A DNA stretch of 64,000 nt from Thermoanaerobaculia bacterium (GCA_022822365.1 JAJEBV010000008.1:169524-233523), one strand, 5' to 3'. Positions 13,946 to 40,117 are shown, counted from the stretch's first letter. Notes: generated from the letters alone by a model not told the origin. A program made the numbers and translations.

Positions 13946-16900
13946 ATGCAGCCGTCAGCACCGCCGTCCATCCCCCGGGTGGGCATGCTCGCCCGGGTCC
14001 GCAACCGCCGCGGCATCGTCGCTTCCGTCGAGCCATTCGACAACCCACACGGCGCTGACGCCGGCCGGCTGCATCTGGTCCAGGTCGAGTACAAGGACCA
14101 CGACTCTCCGCACAGCGAGCGTCTCCTCTGGGAACTCGAACCGGGGCGCAAGCTGCTCCCACCAAGCCAGCTGCCGCGGGTCCACGACACCTCGCCGATG
14201 CCGGCCGAGGACTTCGACGCCCTGGTCCGCGCCGCACGCTGGACAGCCCTCATGCCGTACCTCGATCCCGACGGCGCCGGCCCGCTCGACCGCCAGCCGG
14301 TGTCGAGCCCGCTGCACAGCGGCATCCGGGTAGAGGACTACCAGCTCGTCCCCCTGCTGCGCGCGCTGCAGATGCCGCGAGTGAACCTCCTCATCGCCGA
14401 CGATGTCGGACTCGGCAAGACCGTCGAAGCCGGGCTCATCCTCAAGGAGCTCCTGCTGCGCCGACGCATCCGCCGAGTGCTCGTCCTGGCGCCCGCGGCA
14501 CTGCGCATGCAGTGGCGCGAGGAGCTCGACACCAAGTTCGCCCTGCCGTTCGAGGTCGTCGACCGCGACCGGACCGAGCGCTTGCGCCGCGAACTCGGCA
14601 TCGACGCAAACCCCTGGCGCTCGTTCAGCCGCATCGTCGCCTCCTACCACTACCTGCGCCAGCCGGACATCCAGGAGCAGTTCCTGGCCGCCAGCCAGAC
14701 GCACGACGGGTCGCCCCGGCTTGCCTGGGACCTCCTGATCGTCGACGAATGCCACAACCTGATGCCCTCGCCCTTCGGCGACGACAGCGAGCTGTGCCAG
14801 ATGCTGCGGCGGATCGCACCCTGCTTCGAACACCGGCTGTTCCTCTCCGCCACGCCGCACAACGGCCACACCCGGTCGTTCACCGGTCTGCTGGAGATCC
14901 TCGACCCGGTGCGCGTCAGCCAGACCGACGAACTGACCAACCGCGCCCGGGCCCGCGTCGGCCAGTTGGTGGTCCGCCGCCTGAAACGCGAGCTGAACCA
15001 GGAGTCCGCCGCGCCCCGGTTCTGCACTCGCAACCCACCGGAACCTCTCCTTCTCCACCGGAGCCGGCGCGAACAAACCCTGTCCGAGGCCTTCCACGCC
15101 TTCCGCACGGCCGTCCGCGGCGCCATCGCGGCCGGCCAGGCCCGCGAACGGGCGGGGACCTTCGCGATCGAGATCCTGGGCAAGCGCCTCCTGTCCTGCC
15201 CGACCGCCTTCGCCGACTCCTGGTACCGCGCGCGCGACGGCTACGCCCGAGCCGAACGGGCCGCAAGAGCCGCGACCGACGCCGACGTGACGGCGGCGCA
15301 ACGCTCAGTCGAGCGCGAAACCTCGGACGACCGGGAGACCGAAGAGCGCACGGGAACCGCTGCCGGCGTCGTCGGCGCCTGGCTGCTCAACGTGGCGGAC
15401 TCGGTCGCCGCCGAGATGACGGCCATCGACAACGTCCTCGAAGCCCTCGGCTTCACGCCGGACGGTCCGCCGGCCATCGAGCAGACTCCCAGGGTCGACG
15501 CCCGCTTCGACGCCCTGTCGGACCTGATCGACCGGCTCCTGCTTCTCCCGGCCGCCACTGACTCGACGCCTGCCTTCCACGACGACGAACGCCTCGTCGT
15601 CTTCACCGAGTACAAGACGACCCTCGACTACCTCGAACGGCGCCTGCGAGAGCGCTACGACTCCCGCGTGCTGACTCTCTTCGGGTCCGGCGGCGCCGGC
15701 GGCATGGACGACACCGACCGCAACCGGGTCCGGGAGGCCTTCAACGACCAGGACTCCGAGGTGCGCATCCTGATCGCTACCGACGCCGCCTCCGAAGGCC
15801 TGAACCTGCACCGCAGCGCGCGCTACCTGTTGCACTACGACTGCCCCTGGAACCCCTCTCGCTTGGAGCAACGCAACGGCCGGCTCGACCGCTACGGCCA
15901 GGCTCGCGACGTGACGGTGCATCACTTCCTGAGCAACGACGACCCGGACCTCCGGTTCCTCGACCACGTGATCAAGAAGGCCGACGAGATCCGCGAAGAC
16001 CTGGGATCGGTGAACGAACTCTTCGATGTCGCCGCTCACCGCCGGCTGATCGAGGGCGAGGACCTGCGAAGGGTCCAGTTCGACCTGAACCACGGACTCG
16101 AACATGAAGTCGAACGGCTACGAAGCCAGGGAATCCCAGGCCTGACCGCTTTTTCCTCGCAGGAGCAACTCGGCGAGGCGGAACTGCTCCGCGTTCGCGG
16201 CGGCCGGGCACTGGCCGACGAGGATCCGGCCAAGCGCCTGGCCGCGCTGGCCACCGAGATCGACTTCGATGCCGCCGCGCTCCGGCTCACGCTCGAAGCT
16301 GCCATGGCCGCCACCGGCGGAGGCCGGCCGCAACTTCGCCACGCTCCGGCCGAAGACGACTTCTGGCGTCTCCTCCGCCCGGATCTCCCGGGCTGGCGCG
16401 ACACGATCGACGAGTCGGTACGGCAGCCGACCAAAGACGGTGTTCACGGCGGGACCCGGTCACTCGCCTTCGACCCCGACTCCCTGCTACGCCGGGTGGG
16501 CGGCCGCGGCGTGTTCTCCCCACGGCAAGAGGTCGCGCTGCTCCACCTGGCGCATCCGATGATCGAGCGCACGCTGCGCGTGCTCACGCAACACCGCCTG
16601 CCGGGCCCAAACGAAAAGGCGCGTTGGACAGTGCGGCGCGGCGGCGTACCCCACGGCGTCGACGCCCTGATCCTGCTCAGCCTGGAGGAACTCGCCGTCA
16701 ACGAACTCCGCGAGACCTTCCACCACTGGGTGCGGACAATCGCCTTTCCCGTTCAGGGAGGCGTTCTAGGCGAACGCGAGCGCCACGTCCCCGCCCGCAA
16801 CCTGGCCGCTTCCGCGCGTGCGGCCCGCACAGACGCCGGCAACGGATCACTTCCCGGCGACTTGTCCGCACCGACGCAAGCCGAGGAGGACCTTGCAAGA

Positions 16901-17347
16901 ACGATCTTCCTCGATGTCGAAGCCGACCTGGAAGCCGTCGTGACCCGCCACGCCGAAGGCCTGACCGAGTCGCTGCGCGAGCAGTTGCAAGTCGACGGCC
17001 AGGAAGCCCTGAAACGCGAAGACGAGCGCTACCGCAGCCGCCAGGGCGAAGTCTCCGAACTGATCGAGCAAACCCGCATCCAACGGCTGGAACGAGAGAT
17101 CGAGAAACTCCGCCGCGAGCAGCAGCAACGCCTCCTCTTCGATCAACGCCGCGACCTGGAGCGCATCGCCGGCTCCATCCAGGAGAAGCAACGCGAGATC
17201 GAGCATCGCCGGCGCCACTACGAAGACGCACGCGAGCAACTGGAACTCGAGCGCCGGCGGATCGTCGACCGACTCCTGCCGAGGCGCCACGCGCTCGCCG
17301 GGAAGGCGCAGGCCTTCCCCGTCGCCGTCGAGGTGCGGCTACCTTGA
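13946..17347 (+). CDS. SNF2-family helicase (DISARM DrmD-like)
   Basis: 1133 aa. SNF2 N-domain motifs (LIADDVGLGKT, DLLIVDECHNL, LFLSATPHNG) and a helicase C-domain (LIATDAASEGLNL, CPWNPSRLEQRNGRLDRYGQ). Coiled-coil C-terminus. Immediately upstream of an N6-adenine MTase. Confidence 0.8.
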   Translation: MQPSAPPSIPRVGMLARVRNRRGIVASVEPFDNPHGADAGRLHLVQVEYKDHDSPHSERLLWELEPGRKLLPPSQLPRVHDTSPMPAEDFDALVRAARWTALMPYLDPDGAGPLDRQPVSSPLHSGIRVEDYQLVPLLRALQMPRVNLLIADDVGLGKTVEAGLILKELLLRRRIRRVLVLAPAALRMQWREELDTKFALPFEVVDRDRTERLRRELGIDANPWRSFSRIVASYHYLRQPDIQEQFLAASQTHDGSPRLAWDLLIVDECHNLMPSPFGDDSELCQMLRRIAPCFEHRLFLSATPHNGHTRSFTGLLEILDPVRVSQTDELTNRARARVGQLVVRRLKRELNQESAAPRFCTRNPPEPLLLHRSRREQTLSEAFHAFRTAVRGAIAAGQARERAGTFAIEILGKRLLSCPTAFADSWYRARDGYARAERAARAATDADVTAAQRSVERETSDDRETEERTGTAAGVVGAWLLNVADSVAAEMTAIDNVLEALGFTPDGPPAIEQTPRVDARFDALSDLIDRLLLLPAATDSTPAFHDDERLVVFTEYKTTLDYLERRLRERYDSRVLTLFGSGGAGGMDDTDRNRVREAFNDQDSEVRILIATDAASEGLNLHRSARYLLHYDCPWNPSRLEQRNGRLDRYGQARDVTVHHFLSNDDPDLRFLDHVIKKADEIREDLGSVNELFDVAAHRRLIEGEDLRRVQFDLNHGLEHEVERLRSQGIPGLTAFSSQEQLGEAELLRVRGGRALADEDPAKRLAALATEIDFDAAALRLTLEAAMAATGGGRPQLRHAPAEDDFWRLLRPDLPGWRDTIDESVRQPTKDGVHGGTRSLAFDPDSLLRRVGGRGVFSPRQEVALLHLAHPMIERTLRVLTQHRLPGPNEKARWTVRRGGVPHGVDALILLSLEELAVNELRETFHHWVRTIAFPVQGGVLGERERHVPARNLAASARAARTDAGNGSLPGDLSAPTQAEEDLARTIFLDVEADLEAVVTRHAEGLTESLREQLQVDGQEALKREDERYRSRQGEVSELIEQTRIQRLEREIEKLRREQQQRLLFDQRRDLERIAGSIQEKQREIEHRRRHYEDAREQLELERRRIVDRLLPRRHALAGKAQAFPVAVEVRLP

Positions 17348-20300
17348 GCCTCCAGGGCTGGAACGATCTGCGCCACGGCGGCCTGCTGCTCGACGCGCAA
17401 CGCCAAAGCGAAATCGCCGCCTCCACCCGTGCCCGCGTCCTCGATCCGTGGCTGGAGAGCGAGGCCCGCCGGCGGGCCGACCTGCTCCGCGACCCTGGCG
17501 CCGCCAACGCCGGCGAACGCACCGAGTTCGTCAGCTTCGTGCTGGAGAGCCTGTGCGGCTTCGAACCGGACGACCTGGGCAGCCGCTGGCTGCGCGGCAG
17601 CCGCATCCCAGCGGAATGGAGCCGTCGCGCCCTGACCGGCGAAAGCGTCCGCCCAAACCACCTATGGCTGGGGCCGAAGGGAGCCGTCCTCCCCGTCTTC
17701 GTCACCGGCGACAGGCAGGTCGGCATCGGCCGCGGCCGGCGCGAAACGAGCCGCGCCCTCGGTTGGCTGCGCGCCGGCAACGAACGGCTCGCCCTGCTCA
17801 CCAACGGCCGCCAGTGGCGGCTTCTCTTCGCCGGCCTCGACTTCGACGCCTGGTGCCAGTGGGACGCCGACCTCTGGTTCGCCGAGGGGGCTCCCACGCC
17901 GGCCCTGAACGCGCTGCTCACGCTGATCCAACCGGAGCTCTGGACACCCGAGGAAGAAGGCGCCGACCCGCCCCTGCTGCGCGCGGTCCGCGACAGCCGC
18001 AAGGGCCAGTCCGAACTCTCCGAGGCACTCGGCGAACGTGTGCGCGAGGCGGTCGAACGCCTGATCCAGGGCCACGGCGAAGCCCTGAAGCAAGAGTGCG
18101 CGACCGTGGACAAGGCCGACATCTACCGCGCCGCCTGCCGCGTCGTCATGCGCCTGGTGGTCATCCTCTTCGCCGAAGCGCGGGGACTGCTGCCGCGGAA
18201 CGACGCCGTCTACCACGACAGCTACGGCCTGGGCGGCCTGCACGAATCGCTGCGGCGCCGGGCGGCGGCCGGACGCTCGCAAACCCAGAGCTACGGGGCC
18301 TGGCCGCGGCTGCTGGCGCTGTTCAAGCTGGTCCGCAAGGGCTCACACCACCCCGACCTTGCCGTTCCCGCCTACGGCGGCGACCTGTTCGCACCCGGAT
18401 CGCCTACAGCCGACGACCGCCTTTCGCGCGCTCTGGCCGTCTTCGAGACCGCGTGTCTCGACGGCGAACTCCTCTCCGACGCCGAAGTCCACGAGATGCT
18501 GGAGCGTCTCACCCGGACCCGCATCCGCATCCGCCAGGGCAAGACCAGCCGCCTCGTAGCGGCGTCCGTCGACTTCTCCGATCTCTCGACCGAGTACATC
18601 GGCGTCCTCTACGAGGGTCTGCTCGACTACGAACTCAAGACGGCGCCGAGCGACGACTCGATCATCTTCCTTGCCGTCGGCGAGCAGCCGGCGCTGCCCC
18701 TGTCACGACTGGAAGAAATGGACGACAAGGCCCTCCGCAGCCTCTTCGCCGCGATGAAGAAGGCGTCCAGCCCCGACGCCGACGAGGATTCAGCGCCCAC
18801 CGACTCCGCATCCGACGACGCTCCCCCACTGGGTGCGCCGGCGCCCCCGCCGGCATCGGGCGCGACGCCGCGAAGCGGCGAGCCCGAACCCACCGAAGAC
18901 CCCCGCCAGACCATCCGCACCCACGCCGAAGCCTGGGCCCGCCACGCCGCCCTCACTGCCGGCCTCGTGAAGAAACCACCGAAGTCCCAAGCAACCCTCC
19001 TCTCCTCCCACGAAGACGAACTCCGCAAACGCGCCGCCCAACTCGTCAACCGCGTCGTCCTGCCCAACGAGTGGTACCTCGTGCGCTGGGGCGGCACCCG
19101 CAAGGGCTCCGGCAGCTTCTACACACGGCCCGGCCTCACCGTGCCCACCGTGCAACGCACTCTTCGCCCGCTGGCCTACGACCCGCCGCTCGATGACGAC
19201 GGCAAACCCGACCGCGATGCCCCACCCGCGGACTGGACTCCTAGGCGTCCCGAGGACATCCTGAGCCTGAAGGTCTGCGACCCGGCCTGCGGCTCCGGCA
19301 GCTTCCCGCTGGCCGCACTCCGCTTCCTCACCGACGCGCTCTACGCCTCCGTCCGGCACCACCGCCGCATCGAAGACCGGGACGACCGCTCCCTCGTCCG
19401 CCTGCTCGGCCTGGACGACTCCGGGGAGACCGAGGCCGATGCCGTCGAGCGACCGGGCGACGAACTCATCCCCTGCCCACCCGACGCCGACGACTTCGAG
19501 CCGCGGCTGCGCGCCGTTCTGCGGCGCTACGTAGTCGAACGCTGCATCTACGGTGTCGACGTCGACCCGCTGGCCGTTTCCCTCTGCCAGCTCTCCCTGT
19601 GGATCGAGACGATGGACCGGGACCTCCCCTTCTCCTTCCTCGACCACAAGATCCGCTGCGGCAACTCGCTCATCGGCGCCTGGTTCGACCAGTTCCAGCA
19701 CTACCCCGCGATGGCCTGGAAGAACCGCGAAGCCGGCGACAAGAACCATTCCAACGGCGTCCACTACGAGAAGGGCGCCCAGACCAAGGCGATAAAGGAG
19801 TGGGTCAAGAACGAACTGACCCCCGACCTGCGGCACACCCTGGAGGGCCGCACCCTCTTCCACGAAGACCTGCTCGAACAGGCGGCCGCCGCCCACGGCG
19901 CCGCCCTCGAAGGCCTGGAACGCATGCACCGGCTCCCCATCCGGGACTCCGCCGCCCGTGCCCGCCTCTACCGCGAGGAACTGACCGGTTCCGACGAGTG
20001 GCGCTCGCTCAAGAACGCGATGGACCTCTGGTGCGCCTGCTGGTTCTGGCCCGCCGACGAACTGGACCGCGCTCCCCTGCCCACCACGTTCACCGACCCC
20101 GGGCCCGAGACGCGCGCCGTAGCCGAACGCATCGCAGCCGCGATGCGCTTCTTCCACTGGGAACTGGAGTTCCCGGATGTGTTCCGGGAAGAGGGAGCGG
20201 GCTTCGACGCGATGCTGGGCAACCCACCATGGGACATCGCCAAACCGAAGTCGCAGGAGTTCTTCTCCAGCATCGATCCGCTCTACCGCTCCTACGGCAA

Positions 20301-22683
20301 GCAGGAAGCCCTGCGCCGGCAGAACGGCTACTTCGACGAGGACCAGGAGATCGAGCGCGACTGGCTCGCCTACAACGCCCGCTTCCGCGCCCAATCGAAC
20401 TTCGCAGCTCGTGCGGCCTCTCCCTTCGGCGATCCCGCGGAGAACGACCAGAGCGAACGGCGCTTTTACCTTGGCAAGGGCAATCTCAGTCTGCACGACA
20501 GTTGGCGCGAGACACGAGGTCGCTCACGCTGCTACGCCGACACCGACCACTCTTTCAGACACCAGGGGTCGGCTGACCTGAACCTGTACAAGCTGTTCCT
20601 AGAGCAGGCTCATGCGCTGCTCGCCATCGGAGGGCGGCTCGGCTTCCTCGTCCCGTCGGGCCTGTACTCCGACAAGGGCACCGGCCCTCTGCGGGACCTG
20701 TTCCTAGAACGGTGCCGATGGGAGTGGCTCTTCGGCTTCGAGAACCGAGCCAAGCTGTTCCCTATCGACAGCAGGTTCAAGTTCAACTCGGTGATCGTCC
20801 AGAAAGACAGCCAGACCCACGTCATCCGTACCGTCTTCATGCGCCGCGACCTGACCGATTGGGAAGAGGCCGAGGAGTTCGCCGTCCCCTACAGCCTCGA
20901 TCAGGTCAACCGATTCAGCCCGAAGAGCCGCGCGATCTTGGAGATCGAGTCACAACGTGACCTCGAAGTCCTCGAGAAGATCTACGCCAACTCGGTACTC
21001 CTCGGCGACGGCGGCCCCAACGGCTGGGGCATCGGCTACGCCACCGAGTTTCATATGACGAACGATTCGAAGCTCTTCCCGCCCCGCCCCCGGTGGGAAG
21101 CGAAGGGTTACCGCCCCGACGAGTACAGCCGCTGGCTCCTCGGCAACTGGCATCCGATCGACGAACTGTGGTCCGAACTCGGCGTCGGTCCCGATAATCC
21201 CGAGCCCGCTGCGATCGAAGTCGAAGACTGGCTGTACGAGCCCGACGCCAGCCCGGAGCGCCGCCAAGCTGAGCGCAGCTTCATCCATGGCCATTTCCTC
21301 GCACCCGGCGATGTCGAAGCCACCGGGTGGGAACTGCGGTGCGCCCAACCGCCCTACGACCGCCTGCCCGTGCCAAGAGTCGCCATTCCCGAGGGCATCG
21401 TCCTGTCGAGAGAAACCGACGCATGGATCCACGAGACCGAGATCGAGGACACGGCCCTTCCGCTGTACGAAGGCCGGATGATCGGCCAGTTCGACTTCAG
21501 CGAGAAGGGCTGGGTCAGCGGTAAGGGAAGAAGTGCCGTCTGGCGCGAGATTCCGTGGGAGCAGAAGCAGATCGAACCCCAGTACCTGATGGCGCAGAGC
21601 GCGTACGTCTCATCCGGGAAGTCGGTTTTGCGACCAAAGATCGCCTACATGCGAGTCAGTTCCTCGACAAACTCCAGGTCCACGATCGCTACGTATCTCG
21701 GCAGCCACCCCGCCGGGGACAGCGTCTTCTACTTCGTGCCCTGTGACGATGACCCGGAGGTTGCCACAGTCATCGCCTCTATCTTCTCGACGCTGGCGTT
21801 CGACTTCGTCATTCGCGCACGCCTCAGCGGCTTGAACATGAGCGAGTTCGTCATGGTGGACGCGGCCCTTCCGCCACGTCTCGGAAGCCTCACGCAAGCC
21901 ATGCTAGGGCCCGCCATAGCCCTTTGCCTCACCGGCCCCTCGTCAGCCGTGGAGCGCCTCCGCCTAGCGGCAGCCGACGGGTCTTCCCGTGCTTCCCGGC
22001 TCAAATCGCTGGCGGCCCTCACGCCGGCCGCACGGCTCGAGAGGATCTCGGCACTAGACGCGATAGTCGCAGCTTCCTTTGGCCTACGAACAGGCGACCT
22101 GAACTACGTGCTCAGGGGCTGCGACGAGATAGAGCCGGAGGGTCTGGCGCCGAAGGGCTTCTGGCGAGTCGACAAGGACAAACCGCCGGAACTCCGCCAC
22201 ACGGTCCTGGCCCAGATCGCCTTCACCGACCTTCAGCGCCACATCGAGTCCGCCGCCGGCGACCGCGAAGCCGGAATTCTGGCTTTCATGTCACAGAACC
22301 AGGGCGAAGGCTGGCACCTCCCCGAGACCCTCCGCCTCGCCGACTACAACCTCGGCCACGACGACCGCGCCCAAGAGCACCAGCGGGTAGCCACCGAACT
22401 CGGTCCTCGCTTCTACGATTGGCAGCTCGCCCAGACGCCTGAAGAAGCCTGGGCCGAAACCCACCTCCACGCCCGCAACCTCTTGGGCGAACACGCCTAC
22501 CGCAGACTTCGAGCCGAAATCGAGCAAAGGCCTCCAGAGCACACTCCCGCCACCACCGCCCCGACCTTCTCCGAGATCGCCGAAGAGCGCCACCGTTGGG
22601 ACTACTGGGTCAACCGGACGGCAGAGCCCACCTCGAAGCCCTCGAAATCAGTAAACACGGACCAGACTGACCTCTTCGACTGA
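17344..22683 (+). CDS. large N6-adenine DNA methyltransferase (PglX/DrmMI-like, gamma-class)
   Basis: TTG start overlapping the drmD-like stop (cTTGA). About 1779 aa. SAM motif I LKVCDPACGSGSFPLAAL (about 19272-19305) and catalytic motif IV GNPPWD (about 20221-20232). The track ORF 16624.. is extended upstream by read-through of the previous gene in another frame. Contains an in-frame copy of a ~65-nt repeat at 18825-18888. Confidence 0.8.
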   Translation: MSLQGWNDLRHGGLLLDAQRQSEIAASTRARVLDPWLESEARRRADLLRDPGAANAGERTEFVSFVLESLCGFEPDDLGSRWLRGSRIPAEWSRRALTGESVRPNHLWLGPKGAVLPVFVTGDRQVGIGRGRRETSRALGWLRAGNERLALLTNGRQWRLLFAGLDFDAWCQWDADLWFAEGAPTPALNALLTLIQPELWTPEEEGADPPLLRAVRDSRKGQSELSEALGERVREAVERLIQGHGEALKQECATVDKADIYRAACRVVMRLVVILFAEARGLLPRNDAVYHDSYGLGGLHESLRRRAAAGRSQTQSYGAWPRLLALFKLVRKGSHHPDLAVPAYGGDLFAPGSPTADDRLSRALAVFETACLDGELLSDAEVHEMLERLTRTRIRIRQGKTSRLVAASVDFSDLSTEYIGVLYEGLLDYELKTAPSDDSIIFLAVGEQPALPLSRLEEMDDKALRSLFAAMKKASSPDADEDSAPTDSASDDAPPLGAPAPPPASGATPRSGEPEPTEDPRQTIRTHAEAWARHAALTAGLVKKPPKSQATLLSSHEDELRKRAAQLVNRVVLPNEWYLVRWGGTRKGSGSFYTRPGLTVPTVQRTLRPLAYDPPLDDDGKPDRDAPPADWTPRRPEDILSLKVCDPACGSGSFPLAALRFLTDALYASVRHHRRIEDRDDRSLVRLLGLDDSGETEADAVERPGDELIPCPPDADDFEPRLRAVLRRYVVERCIYGVDVDPLAVSLCQLSLWIETMDRDLPFSFLDHKIRCGNSLIGAWFDQFQHYPAMAWKNREAGDKNHSNGVHYEKGAQTKAIKEWVKNELTPDLRHTLEGRTLFHEDLLEQAAAAHGAALEGLERMHRLPIRDSAARARLYREELTGSDEWRSLKNAMDLWCACWFWPADELDRAPLPTTFTDPGPETRAVAERIAAAMRFFHWELEFPDVFREEGAGFDAMLGNPPWDIAKPKSQEFFSSIDPLYRSYGKQEALRRQNGYFDEDQEIERDWLAYNARFRAQSNFAARAASPFGDPAENDQSERRFYLGKGNLSLHDSWRETRGRSRCYADTDHSFRHQGSADLNLYKLFLEQAHALLAIGGRLGFLVPSGLYSDKGTGPLRDLFLERCRWEWLFGFENRAKLFPIDSRFKFNSVIVQKDSQTHVIRTVFMRRDLTDWEEAEEFAVPYSLDQVNRFSPKSRAILEIESQRDLEVLEKIYANSVLLGDGGPNGWGIGYATEFHMTNDSKLFPPRPRWEAKGYRPDEYSRWLLGNWHPIDELWSELGVGPDNPEPAAIEVEDWLYEPDASPERRQAERSFIHGHFLAPGDVEATGWELRCAQPPYDRLPVPRVAIPEGIVLSRETDAWIHETEIEDTALPLYEGRMIGQFDFSEKGWVSGKGRSAVWREIPWEQKQIEPQYLMAQSAYVSSGKSVLRPKIAYMRVSSSTNSRSTIATYLGSHPAGDSVFYFVPCDDDPEVATVIASIFSTLAFDFVIRARLSGLNMSEFVMVDAALPPRLGSLTQAMLGPAIALCLTGPSSAVERLRLAAADGSSRASRLKSLAALTPAARLERISALDAIVAASFGLRTGDLNYVLRGCDEIEPEGLAPKGFWRVDKDKPPELRHTVLAQIAFTDLQRHIESAAGDREAGILAFMSQNQGEGWHLPETLRLADYNLGHDDRAQEHQRVATELGPRFYDWQLAQTPEEAWAETHLHARNLLGEHAYRRLRAEIEQRPPEHTPATTAPTFSEIAEERHRWDYWVNRTAEPTSKPSKSVNTDQTDLFD

Positions 22684-22799
22684 CAATCGGCCCCGAGGTC
22701 CAATCGAGTCGGCCCAATGTGCGCCGAAGACTCGCCCCCCGACGACCACCATCCTCCACGCCCCAACCCACACTAACTAGCAGCTAGAACCACCGAAGA

Positions 22800-23846: not shown

Positions 23847-23972
23847 CTAACCACGCGACGGAGGACAGGAGATGGCGAAAATGCACTGTGGCGGTGGGAG
23901 CAGGGGAGGAGGACGGAAGACGGTATCCGCGACGCCGAGACGCAGGCACGCAGATTCCACCGCGCTCCCGGC

Positions 23973-24830: not shown

Positions 24831-24839
24831 TCTCTTCAC

Positions 24840-25837: not shown

Positions 25838-25838
25838 T

Positions 25839-26759: not shown

Positions 26760-26831
26760 GACTGCAACTCTACTTCGCAACAGGCGCGACCGCAACCCTC
26801 GAATCCGGCGACTCGAACATTCCCGTGCGGC

Positions 26832-29349: not shown

Positions 29350-29389
29350 CCTACGCCGTCACGCAGGCAAGGGGATCGGGTCGGGCCAG

Positions 29390-29725: not shown

Positions 29726-29780
29726 CTGACCACCGCCTGGCCTCTCGGCGAGAGGAACTGGAGGTCTCCTGAGGGGCAGC

Positions 29781-30236: not shown

Positions 30237-30240
30237 CGCA

Positions 30241-32075: not shown

Positions 32076-33340
32076 GCGCCATCACGAGTCTCGCTCTGAC
32101 GGACGTGCGCTGCTTCGAGGGTACTCAGCGTGTCGGACTGCCCCGCATCGCGGTGGTGGTGGGAGAGAACAGCGCAGGGAAGTCGACCTTCCTGGGCTGC
32201 CTTCGCGGCATGGCCAAACTGGCGAGTCTCGACGACCTGGACGACGAGAACCACTTCGATCAGCCGCCGTTCAACATGGGGCCGTTCAGCACGATCGCCC
32301 GCTCCGGCGCGGTAACCTTCGCGCTGGAAGCGACATTCGAGGGCCACAGCTACGAACGCGTGCGCGTCGTCTACGACGAAGGTCCCGACGGCGAACCCCG
32401 CGAGCGGGAGCTGGAATTCGTGCTCAGTACGAAGGGGCCCGACGCACTTGCCTTCGGCATCACGCGGATCGACCCGTCAGACGATGAACACAGGGAGACG
32501 TGGCGAGTCGCCGGACCGGGTTTCGAGTTCGACTTCGAACAGTCGTCGGTTTCCTACCGGCAGTTCAGCACTTGGCTCTCGCGCTCCGTCCGTCGGGGCA
32601 ACCTCCCGCACGACGGCGATCCGACCTTGAGGCGAAAGCGAACCGGCGACGTGACGCCGGAAGCGGATCGGGCGTTCACCCGCTTCGTGAACTTCTTCCG
32701 GGAAAGCCCTCGCGTTCCGCCGCCCGACCAGAAGCTCCTGGTTGTCGCCAACAACCCGGTCGGTTGGCCGCGCGACCGCTCGTTCGCCACAAACCCGTTC
32801 GGCCGGGCGATGGACGAGCCGAGGCTCTCCGAGATTCGGAAACTGGGTAGTGAACTCGGCCTCTTCGGCGACTTGGAGATTCGGCGCGGACCCGCTGGCG
32901 AGTACGAGGTGTGGGCCGACGCCTCCGGCGAGAGCCGCAACCTCGTCGACGTCGGCTTCGGCATTCAGAGCGCGCTGCCAATGCTCCATGCCATCGTTTC
33001 TGCGACGAAGGGGGCCACGCTCCTCCTGCAACAGCCCGAGGCTCATCTGCACCCAAGAACGCAGGCTGCGCTGGTGCGCGTGATCGTGTCGCGCGGTAGT
33101 CGGCTCCTGGTCGAGACGCATAGCGACCACGTTCCGGACTGGTTCCGTATCGCCGCGATGTCGGGGCAGGTGGATCCGCAAGACGTGGGGATCGCCTACT
33201 TCCACCGCAGTGACAACGGCGCCTCCACGACCCTGCACGACATTCGGCTTGACGATCAAGCGAATCTGGACGATCCACCGCGCGGTTTCCGGGACTTCTT
33301 CGTCGACGAGACCGAGCGACTTCTCGGCTTCCGCCGGTAG
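32072..33340 (+). CDS. ABC-type (AAA_15/AAA_21, OLD/SMC-like) ATPase
   Basis: ATG overlapping the previous stop (ATGA). Walker A GENSAGKST, Walker B/D-loop LLLQQPEAHLHP. Confidence 0.75.
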   Translation: MSAITSLALTDVRCFEGTQRVGLPRIAVVVGENSAGKSTFLGCLRGMAKLASLDDLDDENHFDQPPFNMGPFSTIARSGAVTFALEATFEGHSYERVRVVYDEGPDGEPRERELEFVLSTKGPDALAFGITRIDPSDDEHRETWRVAGPGFEFDFEQSSVSYRQFSTWLSRSVRRGNLPHDGDPTLRRKRTGDVTPEADRAFTRFVNFFRESPRVPPPDQKLLVVANNPVGWPRDRSFATNPFGRAMDEPRLSEIRKLGSELGLFGDLEIRRGPAGEYEVWADASGESRNLVDVGFGIQSALPMLHAIVSATKGATLLLQQPEAHLHPRTQAALVRVIVSRGSRLLVETHSDHVPDWFRIAAMSGQVDPQDVGIAYFHRSDNGASTTLHDIRLDDQANLDDPPRGFRDFFVDETERLLGFRR

Positions 33341-33349
33341 GGCTGGGAC

Positions 33350-33844
33350 GTGTGTACTCGGGTAGTGCTGGACGCAAGTGCGTTCGACGTCGTCAACGAG
33401 GAATCGCCGGCGTCGGCCGGCGTGCAGCTCCGACATTGGATAGCCGAAGGGCATGGGCGGGTTGCGTACTCCACCTACGATCGTTGCGGGAAGCAACTCA
33501 AGTGGGACGACAAGGTCTGGGCACTCGTTCGCCGCTACAGCCAGAGCGGCCTGGCGAATCGAGTAGCTGACCAAGATGTTCAACGGGAAGAAGAACGGCT
33601 GCGACCCGTCGTGACACGCTCCGGGGAGAACGACAGGCAAATGCTCGCCCTCGCGGCCGCCTCTGATGCGAGGGTGATGGTCGTCAAAGATGGGAACCTG
33701 ACGAAGGACTTTGAGGACGTGGCGATCCTGCCGAAGGTGCCGGGCTATCGGCGTCGGGCCTTCCCGAAGGAGCTTCCGAGCCCGGCACGCAACGACTTCC
33801 TCCACAGGCGTCGCTGCTCACGGCGGCTGTCCTCACGTTCCTGA
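33350..33844 (+). CDS. small protein with a PIN-like signature (tentative)
   Basis: GTG start 10 nt after the ATPase stop. The N-terminal VVLDASAF and the later SGENDRQMLALAAASDARVMVVKDG resemble PIN acidic-residue blocks. Weak call. Confidence 0.35.
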   Translation: MCTRVVLDASAFDVVNEESPASAGVQLRHWIAEGHGRVAYSTYDRCGKQLKWDDKVWALVRRYSQSGLANRVADQDVQREEERLRPVVTRSGENDRQMLALAAASDARVMVVKDGNLTKDFEDVAILPKVPGYRRRAFPKELPSPARNDFLHRRRCSRRLSSRS

Positions 33845-33888
33845 GGCGACGGTGGACGGATCGACCAGCGTCCGGGAGTGCCACTACG

Positions 33889-33923
33889 CTTGAAAATCCA
33901 GCAGTCACCGCCGAGATTTCAAG
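33889..33923. promoter_or_regulatory. inverted repeat CTTGAAAATCC-N13-GAGATTTCAAG upstream of the giant helicase gene
   Basis: The half-site matches the 11-mer CTTGAAATCTC found in the 12.2-kb direct-repeat cluster. Located about 80 bp upstream of the 34004 start. Confidence 0.55.
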
Positions 33924-34003
33924 CGCGATGACCCGCGCCTCGGCGTCGCTTAGAACGCACGCCTCAAGGCTCAGAGCCCACAAGCGTTAGCCTTGCCGGC
34001 TCC

Positions 34004-37000
34004 ATGGCCCTGAACCCGGTCGTCTTCACGGAGAAGGTCCTCCAGAGCTTTCTCCGCTACCAGTTGCGGGCCTATCCGTTCGCGGATCCGCGCCTGCACG
34101 GGCAGATGCGGGAACTGCTTTCGCTCGACGAAGCGCGGCAGTCGCCGCTGCTGCAGGGACCGTTCGTCAGCCTCTCGCGGCCCTTCCGCGGCGGCGCGGC
34201 TGTGGCGGATCTGGCGGATGAGGGCCTGCTCCACCCTCACCTGGAGCAACGGATCCCGAACGACATCAAGGAGCTCTACCGGCACCAGGAGAAGGCGATC
34301 CGCGCGATCGTCGGGGGGCGCTCGACGCTCGTTTCGACCGGCACCGGCTCCGGCAAGACGGAGTGCTTCCTCTACCCGATCGTCAGTCGCTGCCTGCGGC
34401 TGCGGGACGAGGGTGCGGCGGCCGGCATCAGCGCCGTGATCGTCTATCCGATGAACGCGCTGGCCGAGGATCAGTTGATGCGGCTGCGCTCGCTGCTGGC
34501 GGGCACGGGCGTTTCGTTCGGGATGTACGTCGGCAAGACGCCGGAGAGAGAAGGCGACGTGGTCGGCGTCAGGCTTCCTCCGGGATCTTCCCAGGCGGAC
34601 TACGAGGCGCAGCTAGAAGCGACGAGGAAGGCCAAGAGCGGCGAGAGCGTGTTCCCGGCCGAGGAGGCCTGCTCGCGGGAGGCGATGCGTTCGGCCGGCG
34701 AGCAACCGCGCATCCTGCTCACGAACGTGAAGCAACTGGAACTGCTTCTCACCCGCCAGCGGGACGCCGAGCTGTTCCACGGCGCCCGGCTCGACTACCT
34801 CGTGTTCGACGAGGCTCACACGTTCACCGGAGCGATGGGCGCCGAGACCGCGTGCCTCGTCCGCCGTTTACGGGCCTTCTGCGGGCGACAGGCCGCGGAC
34901 ACGGTCTGCGTCGCCACCTCGGCGACGATCGTCGACCGCGAGCGGCCGGAGGCGGCTCGCGCCTTCGCGTCACGGTTCTTCGGCGTGCCGGAGGAGTCCG
35001 TCGAGACGGTCGCGGAGGACTACGAGGAAGAGGTCTGGAGCGACGAGAGATGGCTGCCAGCGGCAGCGCCGCACGGAGACACCGCCGAGATCCTGGCTGA
35101 CTGCGTGGCGGCGGTCGAGGATGACGTGGAAGGGCCGGGAGACGCTGTCCGCCGCTCTTACCGGGCGCTTGCCGGCCGGGATCTGGACGGTGACAGTGAG
35201 CCCTGGCCCGAAGCGCTCTACGGAGCCCTGGCGCGGAGCGAGATCGTCTATCGCCTGAACGAGGCGCTACACGAGCCGCGGCCGCTCCACGAACTGCCGC
35301 CGAAGCTCGCGGAAGCCATCGGCCGGGGGATCACTGAAGCCGAGATCCTGGCCTGGCTGACCCTGGCCGCCGCGGCTCGAAGGGATGGCCGGCCTCTACT
35401 GCGGCCGGTGGTCCACGGCTTCGTGCGCGGGATTCCCGGCGCGGTCGTCTCCTTTCCGGGCGAGACGGACCAGCCTCGGCTCTGGCTGGCCGCGGAGGAC
35501 GAGATCGAGCACGGCGGGACGGCGCCGGCCGAGGGGACCGAACCGTCAGGCGAAGCGCGGTCGGCGCGTCTGCCCGTGCTCACCTGCACGACCTGCGGCC
35601 AGCACTACTATGAGGCCCATCTCGAGGACTTCTCGTTCACCGGCAAACGCCCGGGTGGCGGCGAGCCGCATGGGGACGGCGTCGTCTGGCGAAAGCTCGA
35701 CGAGGCCCGGGAGGGCAAGCGAGTGCTCCTGGTGGATCGCCTGATCGGCGGCGACGAGCACGACGCAGAGGACGAAGGCGGCCCGGCCCAGGAACGACGC
35801 AACGGCAACAGTGAGGCCGCGAGCGTCCTCGAACGGCGAACCGCTCCGGTTCACCTCTGCCGGTACTGCGGCGCGGCGCATGAACGACCGGGCGGGAACT
35901 GCCTCGCCTGCGGCGCGCCCGGCCCGAGAATCCGCCTTCACGCCGTCCGCCAGAAGAAGGACAGGCCCGGCGTCCTGACGAGCTGCCTCTCGTGCAACGC
36001 GCTGGGCGGCCGGGGCGGAGGCGGCCACTACCGCGAACCGGCGCGGCCCGTCCGCGCCAGCAACGCCGCCGACGTGCACGTTCTGGCTCAGGACATGGTC
36101 CAACAATCGGAGCGGAGGCGGCTGCTCGTGTTCTGCGACAACCGGCAAGACGCTGCGTTCCAGGCCGGCTGGATGAAGGACCACGCCCGCCGGTTCCGGC
36201 TGCGGTCGTTGATGGCCGACGGGCTCAAGGATGGGCACAGGTCGGTGGGCGACCTGACGTGGTTCCTGGAAGACGCGCTGGAGGAGGACGAGGCGCTCTC
36301 TCGCGCGTTGATCCCGGAGGTCTGGGTCGTGGCCCGCAAGGAGGCTGTCGGCCAACGCCACCGCGAGGAACGGCGGAAGTTCCTGCGCATGCAGGTGCTG
36401 CGCGAGATCTCGGAGTCCGCCCGGCAACCCCTGGGGCTCGAACCCTGGGGCCGGATGAAGGTCGACTACGCCGGTCTGGACGCCTCGCTGCCGTGGATCC
36501 AGGATCAGGCGAACCGGCTCGGCCTGCCGCCGGAATCGATGCGCGAAGGGGTCGCCGCAGCACTCGACTACGTTAGGCGGCAGAAGGTCCTCCACGACGC
36601 GGAGTACAAGACGTTCACCAAGAACTGGCTCGCCGGCGACCTGGAGATCCAGCAGGGCTATCTCCGGCGGACTGGCGGGCCAAAGGGCGTCAAGTTGAAA
36701 CGCGGCCCCGGCGACGATCGCGGCCGCGTCCTGCAATGGTTGAGTGAGGGCGGCCAGACCACGATGAGGCAGATGGCCGTGAAGTGGGGCGCCGAGCCGG
36801 AACAGGCGGAGGAGCTGCTGCGGAGCCTGTTCGAGATGTTGGTAGAGCGCGGCCTGCTGCAATCGGTGCAACTCCTGGGCGCACACAGAAACCCGATGCC
36901 GAACGCCAGCGGCGTGTACCAGGTCGACGCCGACCGAATCGAGCTGTCGCCCCACCGCGGCGTCTACCGCTGCCGCAGTTGCCGCGCCCGCACGGTCCGC

Positions 37001-40000
37001 CGGACGCCGCACGACCGCTGCCCGGCCTGGCGGTGCAACGGCACGCTGGAGTGGCTGCGCGAAGACCCGGACGACTACGACCTGCAGCTCCTGGACGGCG
37101 GCTACTCCATGCTGCGCCCGGAGGAGCACACCGCGATGGTTCCGAACCGGGAGCGGGAACGGCTGGAGAACCTGTTCAAGAGCCAGAGCGACGCGGTGAA
37201 CTGCTTCGTCTGCACCGCCACGCTTGAGCTCGGGGTCGACATCGGCGCTCTCGACGCCGTGCTGATGCGCAACGTACCGCCCCTGCCCGCCAACTACTGG
37301 CAGCGAGCCGGCCGCGCCGGCCGACGCCATCGGATGGCCGTTGATCTGACGTACTGCCGGCCCGTGTCTCACGACCGCGCCTACTTCGCCCAGCCCGAGA
37401 AGCTGCTGGCCGGGCGGGTCGACCCGCCGGCCTTCAACCTGAGCAACGACGTGATGGTCCGCAAGCACGTCAACGCTTCCGTTCTGACCGGGTTGCAGCG
37501 GCTCAGTCGGGAGAACGGTGCCGCGCCGGGCAGACTTCCCGCGGCTGAACGGGAGGAGATCGGAGCGGCGCTCGAACGCTGCCTGCCGCGCCGCGTGTCG
37601 GCCTGGCTGTTCGAGGGCGACACCGTGCGTACCGCGCCGTTCGATTTCGGGCCCCTCGCCGAGGTGATCCGGCGGCACCGGCGTACGCTTCTCGCCGAAG
37701 CCGAAGACGCCTTCGCCCAGGGTTGGCCGGCAGCGGACGCCGAGGCGGCTACGCGCGACGTGCTGGGCCGCTGCGTCGACTCCTTCACCGCCGGCCTGAA
37801 AGAAGCCGAACGCTCTCTGCGGCGCCGGCTGGAGTGGGCGCTCGCCCAGATGGAGAGGCTGAACGCGACCCGCCGACCGCGCGGCACGCTCGACCCGGAG
37901 GACAAGGCTCTGTTCCGCCGTTGCGAACAGCTCGTAGAGCGGCTCAAGGGACTTGCGCGCACGAACCGCCGCGACGCCCAGGGGCACTACGACGCGAACA
38001 CGTTCAACGTGTTGGCGGCGCAGGGCTTTCTTCCCGGCTACGGGCTCGAGACCGGGTCCGTCCAGGCGATCGCGGAAGTGCCGGTCTGGCACTCCGGGGC
38101 GCTCGCCTTCAACCTGCCCCGGCCGACCGGCATCGCGCTGCGCGAGTACGTCCCGGGCAACCTGATCTACGCCAACGGGCACCGTTTCGTGGCCAGGAGG
38201 TTCCTGCGCGGTACAGGCGAAGACCGGGAGGAGATGCCCGCGTTCGAGGTCTCGACCGAGCACCAGGCGGTGCGGCAGTGCGACGCCGGCGCTCCGGCAT
38301 CGACGATCGGCGGCGGAACGCTCAGCACGCTCGCGGTCTGCGACGTGGACCTGGCCCATCGGTCCCAGATCTCGGACGACGAGGACTACCGCTTTCAGAT
38401 GGCGGTTGCCGTCCACGGCGTCGAACGCGACGGGCACCGCGGCGGCCGCGCCTTCCAATGGGGCGAGCAGGATGCGTTGCTACGTCACGGCGTCGAACTG
38501 CGACTGGTCAATGTGGGTTCGTCGTCCGCGATCGGCGACGGTTCCGGGCTCGGCTACCCGGTATGTACGGTCTGCGGCCAGAGTGTCTCGCCGCTGTCCT
38601 CCGAGCGCCAGCAGACCGAGTTCACCAAGAGCCACCTGGAGCGGTGCGGGCGCCCGGTGGATCGGATCGGCTTCCACGCTGACGTCACTGCCGATGTCCT
38701 CTCCCTGCCGAGCCTGCCGGAGCCAGCGACCGCCTACAGCGTGCTGGAGGCACTGCGGTTCGGTGCCGCCGGGGTGCTGGACATGCACCTGGACGATTTA
38801 CAGGTCCTGGTCGTGGGCCAGGTCGACCGTCCCGAAGTAAACGCGCTGCTGTGGGACCCGATGCCCGGCGGTTCGGGCCTGCTCGATCAACTCGTCGAGC
38901 GCTTCGACGAAGTCGCCGAGGCCGCGGAAGCCACTGTCGGCGGTTGCGCGTCCGGCTGCGACCACTCGTGCATCGACTGCCTCCAGACCTTCCGAAACGG
39001 CTACTACCACAGCCATCTCAGCCGAAAGACAGCGCTGGAGTGCCTGCGCCAATGGGGGCGCGAACTGGCGCTTTCGCACCCCATTCCCGCTGCCACGCCA
39101 GCCGGTGGCGAGCCCACCGCGCAGCCCGTGAACGAGGCCGAACGCCGCCTCAGGCACCTGCTGACAGCAGCGGGCTTCGCCGAAGGCGTGCGGGGAGAAC
39201 AGATCAACCTCGGCCCGGGCCTGGGCACGACGACGCCCGACGTCATCTACCCGGGCCATGGCGGCATGCCCGATGTCTGCGTCTACCTCGACGGCCTGAG
39301 CGAGCACCTGCACGGGAATCCCCGGACCGCCGAGCGGGACCGGGAGATCCGGTACTGGTTGCGACAGCAGGGCTACGAGGTGGTCGAGATCACCGTGACG
39401 GACCTTGATGACGCCGGAGCGATGGCACGCCACTTCGTGCGGCTCGCGATGTACCTGGGCGCCGAGGAGGTGCGGAAGGCTGTCAGCGTCGGCGGTGCGT
39501 GGTTTGAAGAGGCGGCACCGGCAGGGCCAGCCGCTGCGGCTCCGCCGCCGGAGGAAACTCAGCCAAGCCGGGCCGCCGTACTCCGATTCGTCGAGCCGAC
39601 CCCGGAGAACCGCTACCGAAGCTGCGTGCCGTTTCTGGAAGACCTCGAAGCCGCAGCGGGCAACTTCGGCGACCCTCACGGCGCCTTAGGCGAGATTGGG
39701 GATTCCGGAACCCCTTGGATCGAGGTCGACTTCGGGCGCCAGCCAACGCCCGACATGTTCGCGGCCAGAGTGGCTGGAAGGTCGATGGAGCCACGTATCC
39801 CAGACGGTTCCGTCTGCCTGTTCCGCAGAGGCGTCGCCGGGAGCCGAACTGGCCGCATCGTGTTGGCCCGGCTACGGGACGCCGTCGACCCGGAAACCGG
39901 CGAGCGCTTCACCGTGAAGCGCTATCGAAGCGAGAAGCGGACGGCAGCCGATGGGCCTTGGCGCCATGTCCGGATCACGTTAGAACCGCTGAACCCCGAG

Positions 40001-40117
40001 TTCGCACCCATCGAGCTAGTCGCAGAAAACGACCAAGGTTCGGATGCGATCAACATCCTGGCCGAGTTCGTCGACGTGCTTCACACGGACACTCGGCGCG
40101 AGTCGATGAGGAGCTGA
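34004..40117 (+). CDS. giant multidomain protein: DEAH-box helicase (DrmA-like), Zn ribbons, DUF1998 (DrmB-like), DUF559-like endonuclease and a C-terminal LexA-type S24 peptidase
   Basis: 2037 aa. Walker A TGTGSGKTE (about 34340), DEAH LVFDEAHTF (about 34805), motif VI QRAGRAGRR (about 37300). CxxC pairs CTTCGQ and CRYCGA...CLACGA. DUF1998-like Cys cluster CTVCGQ...CASGCDHSCIDCLQTF (about 38540-39010). DUF559-like AERRLRHLL...VCVYLDGLSEH...YEVVEI (about 39138-39415). S24 domain RVAGRSMEP...GRIVLARL...FTVKRY...LEPLNPEFAPIELV (about 39700-40114) preceded by AAAG (about 39650). Confidence 0.85.
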   Translation: MALNPVVFTEKVLQSFLRYQLRAYPFADPRLHGQMRELLSLDEARQSPLLQGPFVSLSRPFRGGAAVADLADEGLLHPHLEQRIPNDIKELYRHQEKAIRAIVGGRSTLVSTGTGSGKTECFLYPIVSRCLRLRDEGAAAGISAVIVYPMNALAEDQLMRLRSLLAGTGVSFGMYVGKTPEREGDVVGVRLPPGSSQADYEAQLEATRKAKSGESVFPAEEACSREAMRSAGEQPRILLTNVKQLELLLTRQRDAELFHGARLDYLVFDEAHTFTGAMGAETACLVRRLRAFCGRQAADTVCVATSATIVDRERPEAARAFASRFFGVPEESVETVAEDYEEEVWSDERWLPAAAPHGDTAEILADCVAAVEDDVEGPGDAVRRSYRALAGRDLDGDSEPWPEALYGALARSEIVYRLNEALHEPRPLHELPPKLAEAIGRGITEAEILAWLTLAAAARRDGRPLLRPVVHGFVRGIPGAVVSFPGETDQPRLWLAAEDEIEHGGTAPAEGTEPSGEARSARLPVLTCTTCGQHYYEAHLEDFSFTGKRPGGGEPHGDGVVWRKLDEAREGKRVLLVDRLIGGDEHDAEDEGGPAQERRNGNSEAASVLERRTAPVHLCRYCGAAHERPGGNCLACGAPGPRIRLHAVRQKKDRPGVLTSCLSCNALGGRGGGGHYREPARPVRASNAADVHVLAQDMVQQSERRRLLVFCDNRQDAAFQAGWMKDHARRFRLRSLMADGLKDGHRSVGDLTWFLEDALEEDEALSRALIPEVWVVARKEAVGQRHREERRKFLRMQVLREISESARQPLGLEPWGRMKVDYAGLDASLPWIQDQANRLGLPPESMREGVAAALDYVRRQKVLHDAEYKTFTKNWLAGDLEIQQGYLRRTGGPKGVKLKRGPGDDRGRVLQWLSEGGQTTMRQMAVKWGAEPEQAEELLRSLFEMLVERGLLQSVQLLGAHRNPMPNASGVYQVDADRIELSPHRGVYRCRSCRARTVRRTPHDRCPAWRCNGTLEWLREDPDDYDLQLLDGGYSMLRPEEHTAMVPNRERERLENLFKSQSDAVNCFVCTATLELGVDIGALDAVLMRNVPPLPANYWQRAGRAGRRHRMAVDLTYCRPVSHDRAYFAQPEKLLAGRVDPPAFNLSNDVMVRKHVNASVLTGLQRLSRENGAAPGRLPAAEREEIGAALERCLPRRVSAWLFEGDTVRTAPFDFGPLAEVIRRHRRTLLAEAEDAFAQGWPAADAEAATRDVLGRCVDSFTAGLKEAERSLRRRLEWALAQMERLNATRRPRGTLDPEDKALFRRCEQLVERLKGLARTNRRDAQGHYDANTFNVLAAQGFLPGYGLETGSVQAIAEVPVWHSGALAFNLPRPTGIALREYVPGNLIYANGHRFVARRFLRGTGEDREEMPAFEVSTEHQAVRQCDAGAPASTIGGGTLSTLAVCDVDLAHRSQISDDEDYRFQMAVAVHGVERDGHRGGRAFQWGEQDALLRHGVELRLVNVGSSSAIGDGSGLGYPVCTVCGQSVSPLSSERQQTEFTKSHLERCGRPVDRIGFHADVTADVLSLPSLPEPATAYSVLEALRFGAAGVLDMHLDDLQVLVVGQVDRPEVNALLWDPMPGGSGLLDQLVERFDEVAEAAEATVGGCASGCDHSCIDCLQTFRNGYYHSHLSRKTALECLRQWGRELALSHPIPAATPAGGEPTAQPVNEAERRLRHLLTAAGFAEGVRGEQINLGPGLGTTTPDVIYPGHGGMPDVCVYLDGLSEHLHGNPRTAERDREIRYWLRQQGYEVVEITVTDLDDAGAMARHFVRLAMYLGAEEVRKAVSVGGAWFEEAAPAGPAAAAPPPEETQPSRAAVLRFVEPTPENRYRSCVPFLEDLEAAAGNFGDPHGALGEIGDSGTPWIEVDFGRQPTPDMFAARVAGRSMEPRIPDGSVCLFRRGVAGSRTGRIVLARLRDAVDPETGERFTVKRYRSEKRTAADGPWRHVRITLEPLNPEFAPIELVAENDQGSDAINILAEFVDVLHTDTRRESMRS

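Follow-up and report, generated by a model that had tools for sequence, protein, structure and literature searches.

ARMADA was described by Bell et al. (2025, bioRxiv, PMC12458937) as a set of three proteins: the BrxHII/DrmD-like SNF2 protein ArmA, the PglX/DrmMI-like methyltransferase ArmB and the YprA-family helicase ArmC, which is closest to the Druantia helicases and carries a fused Vsr nuclease at its C-terminus. Characteristic of ArmC are a BrxA-like helical insert after RecA1, which defines the clade, a beta-barrel Zn module and a MarR-like insert in RecA2. Type II systems possess in addition ArmD, a RelE-GajB helicase, and depend on all of their genes, on the NPPW motif of ArmB and on the Walker motifs in both ArmA and ArmC, giving a direct, non-abortive protection. 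The usual gene order of type I is C-A-B, and A-B-C is reported for 'many archaea and cyanobacteria' (PMC12458937). According to the same authors, DISARM is the only branch of the YprA family in which the helicase is consistently split from the OB-CON-DUF1998 part and the nuclease is of the PLD type (PMC12458937). Here we analyze a locus at positions 13946 to 40117 of a 64,000-nucleotide stretch from a Thermoanaerobaculia bacterium (GCA_022822365.1 JAJEBV010000008.1:169524-233523), the whole of which is called the window below. An earlier note on this DNA had proposed a class 1 DISARM-like gene set split by an 11.3-kb insertion. As judged from sequence comparison, the locus is very probably an intact ARMADA type I system with the order armA-armB-armC, in which unrelated defence modules, 11.3 kb in total, occupy the space between armB and armC. 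As a system with an existing name, it does not represent a new kind. Within the literature searched, three features appear to be new: a cargo slot that recurs at the junction of armB and armC, a LexA-like domain at the end of ArmC and a variable cassette in ArmB.

The window has an overall G+C content of about 69%, and its genes were called from codon-position G+C together with family searches. Three very large genes on the plus strand, all of them full length, make up the core of the locus; they are listed here with their notable parts and the interval between the second and the third.

13946-17347, plus strand: armA, SNF2 (BrxHII/DrmD-like) translocase of 1133 aa; Pfam SNF2-rel_dom and Helicase_C
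17344-22683, plus strand: armB, N6-adenine DNA methyltransferase (PglX/DrmMI/type IIG-like) of 1779 aa; Pfam Eco57I
21604-22143, plus strand: hypervariable cassette within armB (residues ~1421-1600), marked by a drop in identity; no Pfam match
22684-34003, between armB and armC: cargo slot of 11,320 bp, read as a patchwork of defence modules that were exchanged separately
34004-40117, plus strand: armC, YprA-family (DruE-like) helicase-nuclease of 2037 aa; Pfam DEAD, Helicase_C, MZB/DUF1998 and Peptidase_S24
39131-39490, plus strand: Vsr-type PD-(D/E)xK nuclease domain of ArmC (residues ~1710-1829)
39623-40084, plus strand: LexA/UmuD-like S24 domain of ArmC (residues ~1874-2027); Pfam E 1.4e-10

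Every gene named in the earlier note is present at its position according to Pfam and PADLOC, among them the SNF2 helicase and the huge NPPW N6-adenine methyltransferase at the head of the locus. ArmA carries a GLGKT motif (residue 155) and a DECH motif (residue 267), and its PADLOC matches are DrmD over the full length (E 1.1e-190) and BrxHII (E 3e-72); an exact-sequence look-up of this protein returned no record. The motifs of ArmB are CGSGSF (residue 649) and NPPW (residue 960). Its best PADLOC model is REase_MTase_IIG (1354 bits), followed by DrmMI (E 1.8e-125), while PglX is matched only at E 1.5e-7. The start/stop coupling proposed for the two genes is real, with an overlap of 4 nt, but the start codon is TTG and not ATG: the junction reads TTGA, with the TTG start at 17344-46 and the TGA stop at 17345-47. 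By tblastn, armA adjoins armB in all 19 distinct relatives that show both genes, and the two are never separated. In locus L036 (1-3034; our loci are designated by L numbers), which possesses armB, an armA homolog was not detected within 3 kb upstream of it, whereas every other locus with a sufficient flank has one.

The affiliation of the third gene lies elsewhere than was first proposed. ArmC shows GSGKT at residue 115, DEAH at residue 269 and DUF1998 at residues 1582-1660, and four CxxC motifs within residues 528-664 fit the Zn module of ARMADA. Its best PADLOC profiles are DruE3 (E 1.4e-112) and DruE1 (E 1.7e-100), each matched in several stretches. DrmA, in contrast, reaches only E 1e-12, confined to the generic Helicase_C, and none of the DrmB models matches ArmC at E <= 0.01. 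The class 1 DISARM label therefore does not hold. Nor is ArmC a fusion of DrmA and DrmB by descent, as the single open reading frame (ORF) had suggested to the earlier reader: when the DUF1998 region (residues 1150-1699) is scanned on its own, it matches DruE models and none for DrmB. A DISARM operon of the order drmD-drmMI-drmA-drmB-drmC, with drmA and drmB fused, drmC lost and an island inserted, would account for the strong DrmD and DrmMI matches of the first two proteins and for the similar domain set (SNF2, m6A methyltransferase, DEAH helicase, DUF1998 and nuclease). Given the profile scores of the helicase, its single chain with a fused Vsr domain, and the listing of relatives as ARMADA type I in the part of PMC12458937 covered here, we consider such a derivation very unlikely. 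Lower PADLOC scores were obtained with HmaA (E 9e-63), DpdE (E 1e-47) and DpdJ (E 1e-25). We rejected Hma, Dpd, type ISP and the MrfA/Lhr repair helicases on account of these lower scores, and the conserved linkage to a methyltransferase argues against a role in repair.

The following features reported for ARMADA are found together at this locus: an SNF2 gene, an NPPW methyltransferase adjoining it, a single-chain YprA helicase nearer to DruE than to DrmA/DrmB, and a C-terminal Vsr-type nuclease that is predicted to be active. An ArmD-like gene, which defines type II, follows armC neither in the window nor in L001-L006. In the part of Table S1 of PMC12458937 that we covered, contigs from four of our loci (L025, L035, L046 and L023) appear under 'ARMADA Type I helicase'. 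The helicases of these four loci share 51-53% identity with the ArmC of the window over 1834 residues, and in a neighbor-joining tree of our own sample they bracket the clade of the window; as evidence for a place in the ARMADA clade of the published YprA tree, this is indirect.

To place the three genes in other genomes, we started from ArmC, which has 2898 homologs at E <= 1e-20. Contexts were gathered for six homologs and 80 genome loci, and the genes were placed by tblastn. The closest homologs of ArmC (86-92% identity) belong to metagenome-assembled genomes (MAGs) of Holophagales and Thermoanaerobaculia. An armB gene precedes armC on the same strand in 42 loci, which represent at least 12 phyla, and 2 bp to 9.2 kb separate the two genes. 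Seven loci (L022, L049, L010, L011, L035, L025 and L028) have gaps of 2-32 bp and one has a gap of 220 bp; 18 fall within 0.75-2.5 kb, and 16 within 3.3-9.2 kb. Because the linkage recurs in 42 independent loci, we reject a chance association of the three genes, and the earlier view that the three big genes form one system is sustained.

The same data bear on the idea that two unrelated systems share one island, namely a pair of SNF2 protein and type IIG-like methyltransferase, and a solitary Druantia-like DruE helicase-nuclease. In the window the two parts are 11.3 kb apart, the best PADLOC models are type IIG for the methyltransferase and DruE for the helicase, and in nine relatives armB is missing from a complete 10-kb flank upstream; all of this would suit two separate systems. 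They are nevertheless hardly credible as such, given the three genes on one strand in so many phyla, the seven loci in which armB and armC nearly touch, and the lack of any Druantia partner (DruH, DruA-D, DruM/F/G) beside armC; in type II ARMADA, moreover, all genes are required for defence (PMC12458937). Among the loci examined, L070-L086 (Fervidibacillus, Nostoc, Chloroflexi and Clostridia) encode helicases that are 25-38% identical to ArmC and have neither an SNF2 nor a methyltransferase neighbor. Presumably, these are members of further YprA branches, e.g. Druantia or TALON.

The splitting of the gene set by an insertion, as the earlier note put it, is not only confirmed for the window but turns out to be general. 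Defence and toxin genes occupy the gaps; among 114 ORFs in them, we identified Zeta/AAA_33 (five), AbiEii (four), Schlafen AlbA_2 (four), Drt1a (three), and nSTAND3, Fic, AAA_15/21 and IetA (two each). Furthermore, DarT, S_4TM, ThiF, JAB and ParE occur, as well as a few insertion sequence genes. The contents vary even between close relatives. These share the chromosomal site with the window, the sulfatase and the downstream genes being syntenic, but differ in their cargo. Five of the relatives compare as follows with the window.

L087 (ArmC 92% identical): cargo of an RVT_1 reverse-transcriptase-domain protein (1264 aa) and a zeta-like toxin
L069 (ArmC 89% identical): only the CBASS genes and the gene of a 170-aa protein in common with the window
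L001 (ArmC 87% identical): cargo of AbiJ, ApeA and nSTAND3
L002 (ArmC 86% identical): cargo of an RVT_1 reverse-transcriptase-domain protein (1288 aa) and a zeta-like toxin
L013 (ArmC 74% identical): only the E1-ATPase block (29777-33844) in common with the window

L007 likewise carries cargo other than that of the window, apart from the 170-aa gene. Sister loci in the tree can have very unlike gaps as well, e.g. 2.0 kb in L005 versus 9.2 kb in L012, and 0.8 kb in L066 versus 9.1 kb in L021. Homology to the relatives breaks approximately at the armB stop. It returns 20-28 bp ahead of the ATG of armC in L069, L007, L001, L002 and L013, and about 118 bp ahead of it in L087. Because homology is lost and regained at these two points, we suggest that the conserved gene ends recombine homologously and that cassettes are exchanged in this way. 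Convincing repeats, direct or inverted, are found neither at the flanks of 22.4-34.3 kb nor within it; the slot of the window contains no integrase, and ARAGORN predicts no tRNA at the island. The G+C content drops to 0.61-0.66 over 20-34 kb, as against 0.69-0.71 within armA and armC. A scan of the slot for promoters and terminators was uninformative: it gave no sites resembling promoters, and sites resembling terminators were less frequent than in shuffled sequence.

The earlier note had also considered a larger composite system. In that case the nested CBASS, the E1-ATPase operon and the DUF3644 gene would be co-regulated and cooperate with ARMADA as backup effectors or sensors. Several cargo genes do lie on the strand of armB and armC, so that read-through is possible, and armC may rely on transcripts that come from the cargo, because the conserved DNA upstream of it starts so close to its ATG. 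Precedents for cooperation exist as well: ARMADA type II synergizes with a neighboring Druantia III (PMC12458937), and auxiliary effectors are found inside BREX loci (PMC12839542). Against this stand the wholly different cargo of relatives with 86-92% identical ArmC, the compact three-gene operons that do without cargo, the opposite orientation of CBASS, and the fact that each module is a recognized, self-contained system or toxin-antitoxin pair. A composite system is thus disfavored and, in our estimate, improbable; the turnover of cargo contradicts it, save for a possible regulation or synergy.

Beyond the arrangement of genes, the C-terminus of ArmC distinguishes this locus. In an alignment of 120 sequences, the putative catalytic residues of the Vsr domain (D1746, D1763, H1770 and E1795) are invariant. 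The S24 domain that follows has the corresponding fold type, a Ser-Lys dyad and an Ala-Gly site, as do the self-cleaving S24 peptidases (LexA, UmuD and cI), whose site is Ala/Cys-Gly and whose cleavage is stimulated by RecA filaments: the residues of the putative cleavage site, A1885 and G1886, are conserved in 120 and 117 of the 120 sequences, respectively, and the putative catalytic residues S1927 and K1972 in 119 each. About half of the ArmC relatives sampled possess the S24 domain, and the others end ~75-92 residues past the Vsr motif; in the neighbor-joining tree it marks one large subclade of ArmC with scattered losses. In the ARMADA paper (PMC12458937) and in those of its supplements that were covered, the words S24, LexA, UmuD and peptidase do not occur, and a wider literature search for S24-fused defence helicases yielded nothing relevant. 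A comparison of the ArmC C-terminus with PDB by sequence, alone or as a profile of 16 sequences, gave no match.

The third distinctive feature lies within armB. Compared with five close relatives whose ArmC is 86-92% identical, the identity of ArmB falls to 20-40% in the cassette and amounts to 80-90% on both flanks; at the DNA level, homology is lost at 21594 and regained at 22151-22153 in all five. Because identity collapses between such sharply conserved flanks, we read the cassette, for which Pfam offers no family, as probably a swapped target-recognition module. This would suggest a reprogrammable target specificity, as in PglX and type IIG enzymes.

Our model of the mechanism is derived from the experiments on ARMADA type II (PMC12458937) and from the logic of DISARM and BREX. 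ArmB would mark the host DNA by N6-methyladenine, the target motif being determined by the variable cassette; ArmA as translocase, and ArmC as helicase with its Vsr nuclease, would translocate on, unwind and cut unmarked invading DNA. Defence would thus be direct, and the cell would not be killed. The cargo modules (CBASS, the E1-ATPase operon and DUF3644) would act on their own; recombination between the conserved 3' end of armB and 5' end of armC would add and remove them. As for the S24 domain, it may dimerize ArmC. Alternatively, and more speculatively, it could cleave itself at A1885/G1886 on filaments of RecA and single-stranded DNA, which would tie the nuclease to DNA damage induced by infection. 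We propose, with more doubt than confidence, that the junction of armB and armC is a dedicated, recombination-driven cargo slot with the gene ends as homology arms, a defence island within a defence operon as it were, and that the ArmC of the S24 subclade is a LexA-like, self-cleaving helicase-nuclease responsive to RecA filaments.

Several points weigh against the assignment to ARMADA type I, or against parts of the model. A defence phenotype is reported only for the type II system of E. coli, which requires ArmD, a protein absent in the window (PMC12458937). The discrimination of self from non-self by methylation is an assumption. The type I placement of the subclade is based on our own neighbor-joining tree and on sequence identity, and no S24-bearing relatives are found among the rows of Table S1 that were covered (PMC12458937). 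The A-B-C order, given in the preprint for 'many archaea and cyanobacteria', is seen in many bacterial phyla here. There are, furthermore, the nine loci without armB in a complete 10-kb flank; they may have larger gaps like that of the window, whose own 11.3 kb would count as 'no armB' under the 10-kb flank test, or they may be broken systems. Finally, nearly all relatives are MAGs, and the armC ORF is interrupted in eight of them. These early interruptions of the frame, in L050, L054, L085, L059, L065, L044, L047 and L058, may be due either to a decaying system or to erroneous frameshifts from the assembly of long-read MAGs.

The cargo of the window is as the earlier note had it, i.e. a CBASS-like operon, an XRE regulator, a membrane protein, a ubiquitin-like operon and an ABC ATPase; by Pfam and PADLOC, the membrane protein is the S_4TM effector of the CBASS. 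The genes of the slot are the following.

22800-23846, plus strand: DUF3644 protein, candidate PDC-S19 (Pfam E 2e-48; PADLOC PDC-S19 E 2.6e-120)
23973-24839, minus strand: CD-NTase of a type III CBASS (PADLOC Cyclase E 4e-86; Pfam SMODS)
24840-25526, minus strand: HORMA protein of the type III CBASS (PADLOC E 7e-78; Pfam bacHORMA_2)
25839-26957, minus strand: TRIP13 of the type III CBASS (PADLOC E 2e-110; Pfam AAA)
26733-27263, plus strand: XRE-type helix-turn-helix regulator (Pfam HTH_31 and HTH_3, E 4e-10; weak PADLOC match to capH, E 3e-4)
27401-28246, minus strand: S_4TM membrane effector of the CBASS (Pfam E 4.8e-50; PADLOC 4TM Effector E 8e-43)
28837-29349, plus strand: 170-aa protein without a Pfam or PADLOC match
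29781-30236, plus strand: possible multi-ubiquitin gene (Pfam Multi_ubiq E 0.006, below the cut-off)
30507-32075, plus strand: ThiF E1 (Pfam ThiF E 2.4e-32)
32072-33340, plus strand: AAA_15/21 ATPase (Pfam AAA_21 and AAA_15), overlapping the E1 gene by 4 nt
33350-33844, plus strand: gene of a 164-aa protein without a Pfam match

With CD-NTase, HORMA, TRIP13 and effector, the minus-strand genes constitute a type III CBASS, in which the true starts of the HORMA and TRIP13 genes probably lie inside the called ORFs. The XRE gene, divergent from TRIP13, parts the 4TM effector from the cyclase, HORMA and TRIP13 genes, an arrangement that is identical in L069. The gene of the 170-aa protein is common to L069, L007 and L001 (75-81% identity by blastn). 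The region 29781-33844 forms one operon-like block with PADLOC matches to E1-E2 (E 1e-19) and NsnB (E 5e-39); the N-terminal ~220 aa of the E1 match no Pfam family. The whole block recurs in L013 (5492-9610) directly upstream of armC with 72.6% DNA identity. An ATPase with a small gene (~163-183 aa) also stands by itself upstream of armC in L005 and downstream of it in L002. The minus-strand ORF 29390-29968 has no Pfam match. A 170-bp segment (29448-29620) is 80-84% conserved in all close relatives and there corresponds to a minus-strand gene of 68-70 aa by a zeta-like toxin. The toxin gene (AAA_33/Zeta_toxin, 174 aa), which stands beside the segment in the relatives, is missing in the window, and the segment looks like the remnant of a toxin-antitoxin pair.

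On both sides of the system, smaller defence and toxin-antitoxin genes mark the edges of the island. armC is followed by the gene of a NucS-like PDC-S11, a DUF433/PIN-like toxin-antitoxin pair and a sulfatase.

12366-13520, plus strand: AAA_14/DUF4143 ATPase (PDC-S01), defence/toxin-antitoxin gene at the island edge
13597-13881, plus strand: DUF2442 gene, small defence/toxin-antitoxin gene at the island edge
40120-41007, plus strand: PDC-S11, NucS-like PD-(D/E)xK nuclease (D58, E73-N-Q75), a neighbor and not a core ARMADA gene
41029-41837, minus strand: DUF433 and DUF5615/PIN_10 pair, toxin-antitoxin at the island edge
44379-45368, minus strand: Fic gene at the island edge, beyond the sulfatase

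The earlier note was right that no PLD gene is present and that a PD-(D/E)xK gene comes after the helicase. The latter, however, is not the nuclease of the system, a function that belongs to the Vsr domain within the helicase. The PDC-S11 gene is missing in most relatives, and a comparison of its product with PDB by sequence gave chance matches only. The tRNA-Gly that ARAGORN reports at 5638-5715 lies inside a well-supported tricorn-protease ORF (5049-8534) and is probably a false positive.

Tools that predate 2025 mislabel loci of this kind. PADLOC-DB v2 gives DrmD, type IIG/DrmMI and DruE, and such a locus would score as a partial DISARM plus an orphan Druantia. If the slot is general, any gene between armB and armC becomes a candidate for a new defence gene, and the slot would be a natural case of defence islands growing by homologous cassette exchange without the machinery of mobile elements. 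The S24 domain, for its part, would offer a simple link between DNA-targeting defence and the sensing of RecA filaments.

Compared with the known systems, the locus is most similar to ARMADA type I. Both have the SNF2 protein, the NPPW methyltransferase and a single-chain DruE-like helicase with CxxC clusters, DUF1998 and Vsr, both are devoid of ArmD, and both are widely spread among phyla. The window differs in its A-B-C order, type I being usually C-A-B, in the additional LexA-like S24 domain on ArmC, and in the variable defence cargo at the junction of armB and armC, which is absent from the text of PMC12458937. ARMADA type II (E. coli NCTC 12900 / ATCC 8739) shares the A-B-C order, the Walker A/B and NPPW motifs and the Vsr domain of ArmC; it possesses, however, an essential armD directly after armC and often extra inactive EEP/Vsr domains, whereas no UvrD/GajB-like gene follows armC in the window.

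The resemblance to class 1 DISARM consists in the homology of ArmA and ArmB to DrmD and DrmMI and in a helicase-DUF1998-nuclease logic tied to restriction-modification. Class 1 DISARM, however, has separate DrmA and DrmB proteins from another YprA branch where the window has a single ORF, and a separate PLD nuclease, DrmC; none of the genes between 12.3 and 41.8 kb encodes a PLD domain. With Druantia, the locus shares the large size of the helicase, its DUF1998 and its nuclease at the C-terminus, ArmC being nearest to the DruE1-4 profiles. The Druantia partners DruH, DruA-D and DruM/F/G have no PADLOC match in the genes flanking armC, which is instead paired with an SNF2 protein and a methyltransferase, and the nuclease is Vsr as opposed to PLD in Druantia type III. 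As regards the S24 domain, known from LexA, UmuD and lambda cI, it is joined in ArmC to the C-terminus of a helicase-nuclease of 1,870 residues instead of a DNA-binding domain.

The cargo slot has its counterparts in other modification-based systems, in which unrelated defence or toxin genes likewise lie between the core genes and vary among strains. Genes such as prrC, for instance, are lodged inside type I restriction-modification operons. Similarly, auxiliary effectors have been reported inside BREX and BREX-related loci (PMC12839542). The BREX-related 'BR' systems of that study were rejected as a candidate for our locus, which lacks the DUF499 ATPase at their center. Compared with the genes nested in BREX and restriction-modification loci, the ARMADA slot is a single defined junction that is occupied in most of the sampled loci and takes up to 11 kb with several complete systems.

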